From contig JABVCE010000005.1 of NCBI GenBank assembly GCA_014905635.1, positions 620,001 to 684,000 on the forward strand: 64,000 nt of DNA. Reading direction: 5' to 3'. Position 1 is the first letter of the stretch, and each line of letters opens with the position of its first letter. Positions 1 through 7,057 of this stretch are shown here, piece by piece. Made by a program: the position numbers and the translations under genes. Origin of the DNA: Scenedesmus sp. PABB004 (Eukaryota). Below the pieces are notes generated by a model that was given only the letters and a program-made list of their open reading frames with translations, was not told where the DNA came from and searched no databases.

Positions 1-715
1 CATCTGCGCCGTGCTCAAGCGCTCGGGCGAGGCGGTGAAAGAGAACGAGGTGATCGCCCAGATAGAGACGGACAAAGTCACCATCGACATCAAGGCCCCC
101 TCCGACGGTGCGGCGGCGCGCCGGGCACGCACGCGGCGGCGGCGCCGGCGACAGCGCCGTGCGCGCGGCACCGGCGAGCGCGCGCCCGCGGCGCCGCCGC
201 CGCCGCGCAGGCGTGCTGGTGGGCGTGGTGTGCCAGGAGCAGGACACGGTCGTGCCGGGGCAGCTCGTCGCGACGCTGGACGACTCGGCGGCGCAGGCGG
301 GGCTCATCGGCGCGGCGCCGCCCGCGACCCCGGGCGCGGCGGCGGCGGCGGCGCAGCCCGCAGCGCCGGCGCCGCAGCAGGTCGCGGCGGCGGCGCCCGC
401 GCAGCAGCACCGCGTGCCGGGCATCCGTTTCCCGCCGCGCGTGACGGCCGACGGCCGGCGCGTGAGCAGCCTGCCGGCGGCCGAGGCGGCCGCGCTCGTG
501 GCGCAGTGGCGCGGCGGCGCGGCCGGCGAGGCAGCGCCCGCCGCCCCGCAGCGGCGGCGCCGGCGGCGCCGCGGCCGCCCGCGCCGGCGGCGGCGGCGCC
601 GGCCGCGCCGAGCAAGTTTGCGAGCAGCATGACGCGGCTGGCGGAGATGCCGGCGCGGCGAGAGCTGAGCGCGCGCGAGATGGAGGCGATTGAGCTGGGC
701 GGCGCGCCGCCGTGA
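1..715 (+). CDS. Lipoyl-domain protein with C-terminal KGD4/MRPS36-like region (5' truncated by window; one intron 108-210; apparent frameshift near 545)
   Basis: Exon 1 encodes VKENEVIAQIETDKVTIDIKAPSDG (lipoyl-lysine motif ETDKV). After GT-AG intron 108-210 it continues GVLVGVVCQEQDTVVPGQLVATL, then a linker and HRVPGIRFPPR. The C-terminus MPARRELSAREMEAIELGGAPP* (stop 715) is in another frame; one extra C in the run at 544-547 would join them. Confidence 0.75.
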   Translation, partial: ICAVLKRSGEAVKENEVIAQIETDKVTIDIKAPSDGAAARRARTRRRRRRQRRARGTGERAPAAPPPPRRRAGGRGVPGAGHGRAGAARRDAGRLGGAGGAHRRGAARDPGRGGGGGAARSAGAAAGRGGGARAAAPRAGHPFPAARDGRRPAREQPAGGRGGRARGAVARRRGRRGSARRPAAAAPAAPRPPAPAAAAPAAPSKFASSMTRLAEMPARRELSAREMEAIELGGAPP

Positions 716-2483: not shown

Positions 2484-5400
2484 TCAGCGCTTCTCCTTCT
2501 TGGTGAGCCAGAGGAAGCCGGCGTACGTGAGGAGGTGGAGGAAGGCGAGGTATCCGACAAGGATGACCACGGTCTGCCAGAAGGGCCGGAAGAGGTCGAA
2601 GTAAGAGAGGATGCTCCCCAGCTCCACGCGGCACGTCGGGCCGGGGTTGTTGACCTGCACGGGCGGGGCGGCGGCAGCGTGGCGGGAGGGCCGGGTGGGG
2701 AGGGAGGGCGCGGGCGGCGGGCGCGGCGCAGGCGCAGGCGCGGCGCGGCGGTGCAGGTGGCGCGCGGCGGGGGCGCGCCTGGTTGAGCACGAGCGGGCTG
2801 GTGATGGCGGGCGTGTTGGGCAGGAACTCTGGGAGGAACGCGACGATCGACGGCGCGAGCCCGCCCGCGCACGAGTAGGACACGCCCCCAAACTCGGCCT
2901 GCGCGTAGCCGTCAAAGGCGAAGCCCATGGCCGAGATGTACCTGCGCGCGTGCGCAGGTGGCGGGCAGGGCGCGCGCGCGCGCGGCGCAGTGAGAGGGGC
3001 AGGATGGGGGAGGGAGAGGGCGGGAGAGGGCAGCGGGGCGCGTGCCGGCTGCGTGTGCGGCGGCGCCGCCCGCGCCGCCGCACCGCAGCTGGCTGAACCA
3101 GGCCTGGCTCATGTCCTGGTAGCGGACCATGAAGTTGGACATTAGCAGGTTGACCGCGGTCCAGCCGATGGCCAGCATGAACGCGACGTCCTGGTTGGGC
3201 GTCACGACCGCCGCAAACGCGAGCACCTGGCGGCAGACACGACGCGGCGCGAGGGTTGGCGGGCGTGGTGTGAGCGTTGGCGGGGCGCGGGGCGAGGGCG
3301 TGACGCGCGGTCGCATGGTCGCACCCACGCACACCAACAACACACGCCTCGCACACCCCGCGCCGCCCAGCGCGCGCAGCCCACAGCGCGCGCAGCCCAC
3401 AGCGCGCGCAGCCCACAGCGCGCGCAGCCCACAGCGCGCGCAGCCCACAGCGCGCGCAGCACAGCTCGCGCAGCCTACAGCACGCGCAGCACGGCCCGGC
3501 GCCGGCGTGGCACACGCACCTGCGCGGCGATGAGGTAGATCAGCACGCTCATGAGGCCGTTCATGCCGACCGCGGCGCCGCTGTGGCGCAGGCCGGCGAG
3601 GCCGTAGAGGGTGTAGCTGAAGAGAAGGACGTTGAGCACCGCAAACGGCGCGACCGCGAGCTGCTTGGCGACGTAGTACGCCGACGGGTGGTAGAGCTTG
3701 GCGCTGCTGTCGGCGATGTAGTACTGCTTGTCCGAGGTAAAGAGGGACATGTAAACATAAGGCAGCAGCAGCAGGATGACCGGCTCGACGAACAGCACGT
3801 TGAGGCGCGCGCGCAGCGCGTCGACGGCGCTCGGGAGGTTGTAGTATATGAGGCCGACAAAGACGGCGAGCCAGCAGAAGATGAGGCAGCGCCCCGCGAC
3901 GTCGGCGGGGTTGCGCGTCACCGCGAGCAGCTCGCGCCAGAGCAGGATCCTGCGGGCGGCGGGCGCGGCGCGCGGCGCGGGGCGCGCGGGGGGGGGGGGG
4001 GGGGGAGGGGCGCGGCGCGCGTGAGGCGCGTGAGGCAGGCAGGGGGAGAGGAGGGCGGGGGAGGGGCGGGCGGGGCGGGCGGAGGGGCGCGCGCGCGGCG
4101 GCGGGGGCGGGGCCACGCGCGGCGCGGGGCGCACGCGGGTGCAGGCGCGGGCGCGCACCTGAACTGCGAGAACCAGGTCGCCGACGTCGGCGGCGGGCGC
4201 GGCGCGCCGCCGAGGCCGCACAGCCCGCCGCGCACGGCGCCGCCGCCCTCGCCGCGCTCCTCCACCGCGTCCAGCACCTTGTGCATCGCCGCGGCCTGCC
4301 CGCCTGCTCGCGGGGTCGCGGCGCGCGCGCGCGCGGGCGCGGGCGTGCCGCAGGGTCAGCCAGCGCGGGGCAGGGCCGGGCGAGGCGCCGGCGCGGGGCG
4401 CGCGCGTGCGCGCGCTTGCGCGGCCGCACCGTTGCCGGCGTCGCCGGCGCGCTGCGCGTCGTCGCTGCGCGCGGCGGCCGCGGCGGCGGCCGCCCCGGGG
4501 CCGCTGGGCGGCAGCGCGGCGAGGTAGCGCTTGCGGAAGGCGTCTGCGTGTGTGGTGAGCTCGTCCAGGGAGTTCATCATGCGCCCAAACAGCGACTGGG
4601 GGCGGGGAGAGGGGGAGGGATGGAGGCAGGGCGGGAGGGAGGGAGGGACGGGTTGAGTCAGTCACGCACGTGCGCGCGCGCACACCCACACGCACGCGCG
4701 CACACACGACACACACAACGCACACACGCGCGCGCGCACCTCTGGCTTCTTGAACCCGATGTTCACCAGGTCCATGACCCAGTCGCTGGCGAGGCCGTGC
4801 AGGGCGGGGTCGTAGGGGTAGCCGCGCCCCACAAACCAGGGGACCATGGCCTCGCGCGGCCCAAAGTACATGAGGTGGCCCATGCTCAGCAGCACCGCCT
4901 GAGCGCGCGCGGGGCGCGGGGCGAGTGAACGAGCGCGGGCGAGTGAGCGAGCGCGGGGCGAGTGAGTGAGCGAGCGCGGGGCGGGTGGGCGTGCGCGCGC
5001 GCGCGGGCGTGCCGGCGGCGCGACGGCGCGGCAGGGCCGAGCGAGCGCGGCAGGGCGGCGGCGCGCGGGCGAGGGCCGGGCGGGCGCGGCGCAGTTGTGC
5101 CGGCGGCGCTGTGTGGGCGCGGCGCGGGCGCACCGTGTCAAAGAGCGCCCAGATCGCGGCGCGGGGCTGGTGGATGCTCGACACGACCGTCTGCCCGCCC
5201 GCGGCCATGGAGCGCATGTAGCTCATCACGCTCAGCGCGGCAAAGGAGTCGAGCCCGCTCGTCGGCTCGTCCAGGAAGACCACGCACGGCGTGGACATGA
5301 TGCCTGCGCGGCGGCGGGGTGCGGCGCGGCGGCGCGGAGTGGGGCGGCGGCGCGACGCGACGTGGGGCGTGGGCGGCGGCGGGGCGGCGCGGAGGGGAGG

Positions 5401-7057
5401 GCGCGGGCGGCCGCCGGCGGCGCGGAGGGGGAGGGCCGCGGCGCGGCGCGGGAGCGCGGCGGGCGGTGGCGGGCGCGGCGCGCCGCGCACCCGTCGCGAT
5501 GGAGAGGCGCTTGCGCTCGCCGCCGCTGAGGCCGCGCAGCACGATGCCGCCAGGCAGCGTGCCGCCGACGAGCGTGTCGGTCGTGTGGGAGAGGCCCATC
5601 GCGGCGAGCACCTCGCCGATGCGCGCGCGCCGCGCGGCCTTGGCCATGCCGCGCGGCAGCGTGAGCGTGGCGTAGTAGCCGCACGTCTCCGACACCGTCA
5701 TCGTCGGCATAAAGTTGTCATCCTGTCATGTTGTCATTTGTTAGAATCACGAGGACGACGCACGCGCACGGGGCAGCGGCGGCGGCGGCAGCGGCGGCGG
5801 CGGGGGTCGGCGGCAGAGGGGTGGCGGCGGGCTGGCGCGCGCGCGCGCGGTGGAGCGGCGCGCGGGTCCAGCGGTGCGCCGGCGCACCTGCGGGACGTAC
5901 GCCGTCTTGCGCGCAAAGTCCTGCTGCCGGCGCGGCGCGCCGTTGACGAGCACCGCGCCGGTGAGCGTGCCGACGCTCTTGCGCCCCGCGAGGATATCCA
6001 TGAGCGTGCTCTTGCCCGCGCCGCTGGGGCCCATGAGCGCAAGCATGTCCCCCGGCGACGCCTTGCCCCACACCTCCTGCGGCGGCGGCGGCACCGCGTG
6101 CGCCGCGTCGGCGCGCGGCGGGCGCGCGGGCGGGCGCGGCGGGCGCGGCGGGCGCAGGCGCGCGGGCGCGCCTTGAGCACGGTCTTGGTGCCCGTGGGCG
6201 TGCTGTAGCTGCAGCCGACGTCCTGCCACTCCAGCAGCATCGGCCTCATCTGCGTGGTCAGCCGCCGCATCAGCAGCTCGCTGGTGTGGCTCGGCACGGT
6301 GCCGTTGGCGCCGTCGCCCGACTCTGCGCGGACGCGGCGCGGCGGCGGCGGCGGCGGCGTCGGCGCGCCGCCGGGGCTGGCGGGCCCCGCGCGACGCGGG
6401 CGCGCCGCCGCCGCGGGCAGACCGCACGGCGCCCGCACCCGAGCCGTCCTCCGCGGGCAGGCCCAGCTCCTCGTCCTCGCCGGCGTCGCAAAAGGCGTTG
6501 CTGGCGCGGAAGGGCGTGTCATCGGGGCCCGGCGCGCCCGAGGCGACGCGCGGCGCGGGCGCGACGCGGGCCTGGTCCTTGCCGGCGGCGCCGGCGTCGC
6601 TCGAGGCGCGCGCGCCCGCGCGCGGGCTGGCCACTGCGGGGCGCGGGGTGAAGGGCGCGGCGTGAGCGGCGCCCGCGGCGCTGCTGCGGCCGGCCCAACC
6701 GAATCAACCGCCGCGCGCCGCGCCCGCGCCCGCGCCCGCGCCCCACCCGCGCCCCCGCCGCGCCCCGCCGCGCCCCCGCGTGAGCGAGAGCGCGCCTGCG
6801 CGCGCGCGCGCCGCACCCTTGCCCGCCGGCAGGCCGTGCCCCGTGCTCGAGCGGCGCCCGCGGCCGGTGAGCGCGCGCGTCGCGCTCGCCCACGCGCGCG
6901 GGTACATCACCGCAAACATGCGCGCGAGGAAGAAGGCGGCAAAGACGTGCGCAAAGACGACGCAGGGGATCCACATCGCGTGGATCACGCCGCCCGGCTC
7001 GCTGCTCAGCGGCGGCAGCGCGGCGCCGCCGCCGGCGGTTGTCGCGTTTGCCGCCAT
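2484..7057 (-). CDS. ABC transporter G family (White-like half transporter), 13 exons
   Basis: Walker A LMGPSGAGKSTL, Q-loop YVPQDDNF, signature GLSGGERKRLSIA, Walker B VFLDEPTSGLDS, H-loop SSIHQPR, then an ABC2 membrane domain ending FLHLLTYAGFLWLTKKEKR*. The start at 7057 (extra N-terminal hydrophobic segment) is inferred by splicing. Confidence 0.9.
3368..3490. repeat. 16-bp tandem repeat (CAGCGCGCGCAGCCCA), 5 perfect copies plus degenerate copies, inside an ABCG intron
   Basis: Directly visible; adjacent units with no spacers. Confidence 0.9.

Follow-up and report, generated by a model that had tools for sequence, protein, structure and literature searches.

The 64,000-nucleotide stretch of Scenedesmus sp. 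PABB004 DNA analyzed here (assembly GCA_014905635.1, contig JABVCE010000005.1, positions 620,001 to 684,000 of the forward strand; hereafter, the window) begins inside a gene. Window positions 2 to 715 on the forward strand hold about 80% of that gene, its 3′ four-fifths; the 5′ window edge truncates it, leaving the presequence and the first strands of a lipoyl domain outside. What lies within the window encodes the remainder of the lipoyl domain, an Ala/Pro-rich linker, a conserved N motif, a second linker, and a conserved C-terminal motif (C motif). This is most likely a nuclear gene encoding a mitochondrial protein of a family conserved in Chlorophyta, the mitochondrial location of the product being a prediction. 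[quoted passage not shown]

A lipoyl domain and a two-motif tail at the 5′ edge of the window

Exon A, although it covers only part of the lipoyl domain, passes the cut-off of the Pfam family Biotin_lipoyl (PF00364) on its own, with an E value of 2.1e-7 and 31.1 bits against a cut-off of 22.1 (profile positions 18 to 50 of 73). A predicted intron separates it from exon B; we place it there because the lipoyl sequence is taken up again at position 211, in frame 3 and colinear with a hidden Markov model (HMM) of the family. Exon B, which is 57 to 61% identical to the relatives P0001 to P0006, carries the last lipoyl strands and the N motif, so that the lipoyl part and the tail share one frame there. 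The coordinates of all of these features are collected in Table 1.

The family HMM has 255 nodes and was built from 19 full-length relatives. It matched three pieces of the window in colinear order: nodes 49 to 85 with 59.3 bits, nodes 81 to 194 with 103.9 bits, and nodes 188 to 254 with 26.6 bits. An earlier, sequence-only reading of this DNA had picked out an E2o-like lipoyl domain, an Ala/Pro linker, an N motif, and a C motif; all four are present in the sequence, and the colinear HMM match bears them out. An E2 catalytic domain (2-oxoacid_dh) is absent from the gene, the TGA stop codon ending the tail directly.

Table 1. Features of the gene truncated by the 5′ edge of the window
Feature	Position in window	Strand	Reading and basis
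Exon A, part within the window	2..107	+	Frame 2; ICAVLKRSGEAVKENEVIAQIETDKVTIDIKAPSD, then one base that opens a Gly codon; central part of the lipoyl domain
Lipoyl-lysine codon AAA in IETDKV	74..76	+	Read from the sequence
Intron GTGCGG...CGCAG, 103 nt	108..210	+	Shifts frame 2 to frame 3; boundaries read from the sequence
Start of exon B, last lipoyl strands	211..284	+	Frame 3; GVLVGVVCQEQDTVVPGQLVATLDD
Linker 1, Ala/Pro-rich	285..407	+	Open frame in common with the lipoyl strands
N motif	408..509	+	HRVPGIRFPPRVTADGRRVSSLPAAEAAALVAQW, containing HRVPGIRFPPRVTADGRRVSSLPAAEA; shares exon and frame with the lipoyl strands; proposed E3-binding element
Linker 2, Ala/Pro-rich	510..607	+	One frame change, from frame 3 to frame 2; from the family HMM
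C-terminal module	608..712	+	PSKFASSMTRLAEMPARRELSAREMEAIELGGAPP, ending MPARRELSAREMEAIELGGAPP; frame 2; would dock on the E2o (E1o-E2o) core
TGA stop	713..715	+	Immediately 3′ of the C-terminal motif; read from the sequence

An E2o-type lipoyl domain

The lipoyl domain of the family is of the type found in E2o, the E2 component of OGDH (DLST/SucB). Its best single-domain match in the PDB is the E2o domain 9njt_A (54.9 bits), and the next matches are the E2o lipoyl domains of Azotobacter and E. coli (1ghj and 1pmr). The closest bacterial lipoyl domains, at 34 to 55% identity, come from proteins that scored as SucB equivalogs above the NCBIfam cut-off in all 10 cases tested. The TDKVT.D columns around the lipoyl-lysine are invariant in 16 of 16 full-length relatives, and we predict that this lysine is the lipoylation site of the family.

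The architecture is conserved in Chlorophyta

With exon B alone as the query, a database of 5.8 billion proteins yielded six relatives at E values (6e-28 to 1.5e-20) that chance does not explain. These six proteins are 232 to 351 amino acids long, and all of them consist of a presequence, a lipoyl domain, a linker, the N motif, a further linker, and the C motif, at which the protein ends. Each matches Biotin_lipoyl with 58.6 to 63.5 bits and contains no other real domain. Across the family, the full-length architecture takes up about 220 to 340 amino acids. The N element, some 30 residues long, reads x-I-(R/K/H)-F-P-P-R-x-T-x-D-G-x-R-I-S-x-L-P-x-x-E-A and runs into a helix, and the C-terminal element reads P-x-R-R-x-L-(T/S)-x-x-E-(M/I)-(E/D)-x-I-x-L-G-G-A and is followed by the end of the protein. 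The N-motif columns I.FP.R....G...S are invariant in 16 of 16 relatives. So are the GGA columns of the C motif in the alignment of full-length relatives, and relatives terminate 0 to 3 residues beyond GGA.

To define the family by its tail, we made a profile (A1) from 11 tails only and searched 1.84 billion representative sequences with it. With E ≤ 1e-3 as the limit, the profile retrieved 157 proteins, and 50 of these passed a limit of E ≤ 1e-10. Our counts refer to 149 representatives, that is, the 150 listed minus one false positive with immunoglobulin repeats. The protein rejected, P0029 (2,549 amino acids, with repeats of the immunoglobulin C1-set), owes its 82 bits to 11 weak, repeat-driven matches to the N motif (positions 5 to 35). 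A whole lipoyl domain precedes the tail in 52 of the 149 listed representatives and is cut by the start of the open reading frame (ORF) in another 27; none was detected in the other 70, many of which are fragments that start just past the domain, a minority being true short proteins with a presequence. The C motif lies no more than 25 amino acids from the C terminus in 124 of the 149. The 2-oxoacid_dh catalytic domain was found neither in the 143 representatives scanned nor in the six first relatives.

All members that carry a species name belong to Chlorophyta. They come from Tetradesmus, Chlamydomonas schloesseri, C. leiostraca, four Chlorella species, Micractinium, Parachlorella, Coccomyxa, Trebouxia, [Myrmecia] bisecta, Picochlorum, Ulva, Bryopsis, Pycnococcus, and Pseudoscourfieldia. 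The fused architecture is present in Tetradesmus, Chlamydomonas, Chlorella, Micractinium, and Coccomyxa and also in Trebouxia, Picochlorum, Ulva, Bryopsis, and Pycnococcus.

The sequence-only reading had been prepared to give up the fusion if the lipoyl exons and the tail were never found in one reading frame. Relatives have them in one frame. The metagenome contig L012 contains, at 595 to 1449, one open frame that runs from 5′ of the lipoyl domain to ...MELIELGGAV-stop, and the metagenome contig L015 contains a single exon from IAQIETDKVTIDIKAPSAG to LINLGGAW-stop. Three complete ORFs derived from transcriptomes (P0011, P0160, and P0197) show the same arrangement and the same end point. In 11 of 15 metagenome loci, a lipoyl-lysine exon is found on the strand of the N motif and 5′ of it; the remaining four have less than 700 nt of upstream sequence. 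The window copy itself needs a frame change, as discussed below. What the earlier reading had described, a protein without a catalytic domain in which a lipoyl domain is joined to a two-motif tail, is conserved in Chlorophyta, and single open frames are known for it. In the frame on L012, the lipoyl domain and linker 1 are separated by an insert, rich in Gly and Glu and some 40 residues long; it has no counterpart in other relatives and may be an intron that stays open in frame.

The tail also occurs by itself. In Micromonas commoda, XP_002503700.1 (a "predicted protein"; P0225) is a tail alone, about 100 amino acids long; this protein and its marine relatives share both motifs with the fused proteins and differ in having no lipoyl domain. 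The stand-alone forms of Micromonas and of the P0177 and P0182 clusters measure 100 to 127 amino acids and consist of a presequence and both motifs, again with no lipoyl domain. A profile of the fusion tail retrieves stand-alone presequence proteins of about 100 amino acids: P0049 (E = 3.5e-12), P0065 (2.6e-10), and P0113 (1.7e-6), the last of which belongs to the Micromonas group; XP_002503700.1 falls in one cluster of such proteins. Stand-alone tails with a presequence and no lipoyl domain were seen in P0022 (159 amino acids), P0049, P0065, P0123, P0135, and P0156 as well. Separately, two subgroups extend past GGA, one comprising P0013, P0033, P0036, P0075, P0076, and P0083 and the other P0037, P0044, P0051, P0055, and P0114; the extension is Lys-rich (EPY...KKK) in one subgroup, and in the other it finishes with residues resembling D-(I/V)-N-(I/V)-x-V-x-V.

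The sources label these proteins "hypothetical," "lipoyl-binding domain-containing," E2o, E2p, or "...at N-terminal half." The earlier suspicion that automated pipelines would mislabel such a gene was well founded, since relatives do carry the names E2o, E2p, or "N-terminal half."

The window copy contains one frame change in linker 2

Frame 3 is coding at least up to the Trp codon at 507 to 509, this Trp being conserved in the nearest relatives, and frame 2 is coding at least from the Pro-Ser codons at 608 to 613, which lie within the conserved PSKFA(S/T)S. The HMM match continues in frame 3 to about nt 557 and is found in frame 2 from about nt 524. The site of the change is therefore bracketed by about 510 to 607 and falls most likely within 524 to 557, where the run of C residues at 544 to 547 is one candidate. 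The sequence-only reading had put a frame change at 540 to 555: one frame change is indeed needed, and its site can be bracketed only to about 510 to 607.

We considered whether an intron could account for the change. A script enumerated all GT..AG pairs able to carry frame 3 into frame 2 and listed seven, namely, 441-616, 462-616, 498-616, 506-534, 506-612, 506-624, and 506-627. We rejected an intron, each of the seven pairs either deleting conserved residues or being just 29 nt long. Because no usable intron restores the frame, we favor an indel of 1 nt; the frame change is most likely one base gained or lost in linker 2, through either an assembly error or a real mutation.

If the mutation is real, the window copy could be a pseudogene, with a product that ends in an Arg-rich, out-of-frame tail lacking the C motif. 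It counts against our interpretation, and for a pseudogene, that no single frame of the sequence as assembled covers 211 to 715, and the conserved residues lost with every frame-repairing GT..AG pair point the same way. On the other side, frame 2 beyond the break keeps the conserved PSKFASS...MPARRELSAREMEAIELGGAPP and an immediate stop, which would be unexpected after long decay; because the C-terminal motif and the stop are intact 3′ of the break, an old pseudogene is disfavored. The break sits in a GC-rich, low-complexity stretch of a window with 76 to 83% G+C, and assemblies frequently contain single-base indels in sequence of that kind. The family is, moreover, kept in all of the named core chlorophytes seen. 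Taken as a whole, a pseudogene seems to us unlikely. We give hardly any credence to a different objection, that the gene is a fragment or a mis-model of an ordinary E2o (DLST) gene whose catalytic domain lies elsewhere and whose linker we have taken for a tail. Such a view can draw on the names that several sources give to the relatives and on the similarity of the linkers to those of E2 proteins. However, the stop follows directly after the conserved C motif both in the window and in relatives, complete transcriptome ORFs share that end, none of the 143 representatives has a catalytic domain, 12 ORFs scanned downstream of the stop, within the first 10.2 kb of the window, yielded only a transporter match (see below), and in Micromonas the tail occurs alone.

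The tail resembles KGD4/MRPS36

The only recurring Pfam family other than the lipoyl family among the tails is PF10937 (Kgd4-YMR31), to which KGD4/MRPS36 belongs. The C-terminal piece of the window matches it with 11.6 bits (E = 0.93) at profile positions 99 to 116 of 116. In separate scans, PF10937 matched 3 of 11 tails (best E = 0.0068), 4 of 29, and 6 of 47, and among the 143 representatives it matched two, whose scores, 21.6 and 19.8 bits, compare with a cut-off of 22; the higher of these scores, that of P0022 (E = 7.4e-4), is the best for the family. Every match printed extends to the very end of the 116-position profile. Since the family had been named beforehand, E values calculated for the whole library understate this evidence. 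A protein language model gave a similar answer: queried with P0182, which is of the Micromonas type, the ESM Atlas returned PF10937 clusters at 0.97, 0.91, and 0.90. The neighbors of P0182 in the Atlas include a "putative 28S ribosomal protein S36, mitochondrial," and 26 of 30 share the PF10937 family set. The tail and the stand-alone green forms also have the layout of a small protein with conserved N and C elements and a variable middle. From these comparisons we consider it probable that the tail is homologous to KGD4/MRPS36.

Several results weigh against this conclusion. No member of the family attains the curated PF10937 cut-off of 22 bits; none of the six full-length relatives matches PF10937 at E ≤ 1, and none of 35 Micromonas-type and related stand-alone proteins does so at E ≤ 10. 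The matches printed begin at profile positions 19 to 99, and only that of P0166 (positions 19 to 116) could reach the part of PF10937 that corresponds to the N motif, so the N motif is essentially without profile support. No KGD4 protein recognized by Pfam was among the results of the tail-profile searches; a search with A2, an alignment of 29 sequences, returned 71 proteins at E values of up to 10, none with a precomputed PF10937 assignment. The Atlas scores come without an alignment or an E value, about 1 in 100 shuffled proteins reaching 0.95, and the tail of P0004 gave no usable match in the Atlas. Sequence searches of the PDB with tail profiles A1 and A2 returned Ala-rich noise or nothing. 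In fold searches with the tail model, Foldseek matched no PDB entry, and not one of 48,161 chains reached Z ≥ 2. The likeness of the tail motifs to those of yeast and human KGD4 is a presumed one. MerR-type regulators resembled the N motif weakly, at an E value of about 0.5, which was not significant, and they were set aside.

These results leave some room for the tail to be a docking module specific to chlorophytes and unrelated to KGD4, its motifs resembling those of KGD4 by chance or convergence; it would then tether an additional lipoyl domain of the E2o type to a different partner, for example another 2-oxoacid dehydrogenase complex, an enzyme that handles lipoate, or a regulator. We think this rather unlikely. 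Apart from the PF10937 scores, consistently below the cut-off and absent from many members, and the failure of the profiles to retrieve any KGD4 protein, this explanation can appeal to the conserved T-x-D-G-x-R-I-S-x-L-P part within the N motif, a part not known from opisthokont KGD4. Chance resemblance fits less well with PF10937 being the sole recurring nonlipoyl family, with printed matches that end at the final profile position, or with the KGD4/MRPS36 clusters that neighbor the stand-alone form in the Atlas. In size and layout, the stand-alone form (about 100 amino acids, with a presequence, the N motif, a variable linker, and the C motif) fits KGD4 as described in PMC4214781, and the lipoyl domain belongs to the E2o type. 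The assignment to KGD4 made in the sequence-only reading is thus supported only in part, by the recurrence of PF10937 below its cut-off and by the Atlas neighbors.

Origin of the tail and of the fusion

The sequence-only reading had suggested that the architecture might be ancestral and link KGD4 to modules derived from E2. Bacterial E2o proteins contain a PSBD (peripheral subunit-binding domain), and we asked whether the N motif could be a remnant of one by comparing, with hhalign, an alignment of 200 N-motif sequences with 49 PSBDs from bacterial SucB genes. It could not be recognized as such: the probability was 0.14% and the E value 0.42, over 8 columns. Likewise, Pfam scans of the window pieces, of 11 tails, and of 29 sequences gave no E3_binding (PSBD) match at E ≤ 10. 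In this single test, then, the N motif has no profile similarity to bacterial E2o PSBDs, and an ancestral, E2-derived origin is not supported.

Micromonas, a member of the Mamiellophyceae, has the tail alone, whereas the fusion is present in Pycnococcus, which stands for a different early branch of the chlorophytes, and in the core chlorophytes; with this distribution, a gain of the lipoyl domain by fusion and a loss of it are both possible. An idea that we put forward as speculative and hold to be improbable is that KGD4 is the remnant of an E2o paralogue ("E3BPo") without a catalytic domain, that the chlorophyte fusion, with its lipoyl domain, its E3-binding element, and an end that docks on the core, is the ancestral layout, and that Mamiellophyceae, fungi, and animals lost the lipoyl domain. 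If true, this would explain where the adaptor came from once eukaryotic E2o had lost its PSBD, and the OGDH of most green algae would have two kinds of lipoyl carrier.

Sequence context of the gene

We scanned 12 ORFs within the first 10.2 kb of the window against Pfam and found no 2-oxoacid_dh. The only match was to an ABC-2 transporter: an open frame at 3475 to 5697 on the reverse strand matches ABC2_membrane (E = 1.1e-11, 45.1 bits) and is probably an exon of an ABCG-type transporter. The other 11 neighboring ORFs scanned, including that at 910 to 2301 on the reverse strand, had no Pfam match at E ≤ 1e-3. Over the full window, 1 to 64000, the G+C content is 76 to 83% in each 4-kb bin, and the six frames together contain 143 stop-free stretches of at least 250 amino acids; because such a G+C content yields many stop-free stretches, open frames carry little meaning here.

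Discussion

We judge it probable that the protein is a KGD4-type adaptor of OGDH that carries its own lipoyl arm. In yeast without kgd4, E3 is lost from OGDH. Pull-downs with yeast Kgd4 recovered E3 with its N-terminal part and the Kgd1-Kgd2 core with its C-terminal part (PMC4214781). Eukaryotic E2o has no PSBD, and MRPS36 has been modeled with its N terminus on the E3 dimer and its C terminus on the E2o trimer (PMC9974300); the Chaetomium homologue of KGD4 has been named E3BPo (PMC10203282). By analogy, the N motif of the algal protein would bind E3 and its C motif would bind the E2o core.

The protein would work as follows. It would be imported into mitochondria and lipoylated at the invariant lysine. 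Its C-terminal motif would dock onto the E1o-E2o core of OGDH and its N motif would hold an E3 dimer, beside which the lipoyl domain, as an extra arm, would swing on the Ala/Pro linker. The protein would thus play for OGDH a role similar to that of E3BP (protein X) for pyruvate dehydrogenase, except that a short peptide, and not a domain that helps to form the core, would provide the docking. The presequences are of the organelle type and have few acidic residues: within the first 25 residues there is none in 58 of 79 full-length members and at most one in 72 of 79. In an AlphaFold2 model of P0004, the predicted local distance difference test (pLDDT) score is 85 to 94 for the lipoyl domain and below 50 for the linkers; the N-motif block scores about 90 and the C-motif block 87, each with a helix. 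Models of this kind are compatible with a beads-on-a-string adaptor.

Comparison with known proteins sets out what is shared and what is not. Like KGD4/MRPS36/E3BPo, the tail is a short module with conserved N and C elements separated by a variable, disordered linker, and the PF10937 matches at the C-terminal end of the algal tails are specific, if below threshold. The algal protein differs in its additional N-terminal lipoyl domain of the E2o type and first Ala/Pro linker and in the conserved T-x-D-G-x-R-I-S-x-L-P added to its N motif. To E3BP (PDHX) the likeness is one of working, not of membership: both would present, in order, a lipoyl domain, a linker, an E3-binding element, a linker, and a means of attachment to the core. 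In contrast to E3BP, the algal protein has no PSBD match and, in the members scanned, no E2-like core domain; it would be attached to the core by a peptide of about 25 residues, and its lipoyl domain is of the E2o type rather than the E2p type. With E2o (DLST/SucB), it shares the closest lipoyl domains and the Ala/Pro linkers, but it has no catalytic domain and ends after the KGD4-like motif. Because that domain is absent, the algal protein cannot carry out succinyl transfer.

The literature covered treats KGD4/MRPS36 as the fungal and animal replacement for the E3-binding domain missing from eukaryotic E2o. KGD4 homologues have been reported from fungi and animals (PMC4214781), and a set of MRPS36 homologues was gathered by BLAST with the bovine protein (PMC9974300). 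PMC4214781 and one further KGD4 paper make no mention of plants, and the Andalucia study does not discuss KGD4 in plants or algae. In the KGD4/MRPS36 literature covered, which leaves out most subscription journals, we found neither a lipoyl fusion nor a homologue from the green lineage. What is new relative to known KGD4 is an adaptor that carries its own lipoyl arm, a design that, as far as the sources searched extend, has not been described for OGDH.

Recognition of this family would correct a widespread misannotation, its members now being named E2o, E2p, or hypothetical. An adaptor with a lipoyl arm parallels E3BP in pyruvate dehydrogenase, and the finding bears on the evolution of the adaptor. 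In the KGD4/MRPS36 literature covered, how E3 is retained on the OGDH of the green lineage is not addressed, and the family described here provides a concrete green-algal candidate for that role.

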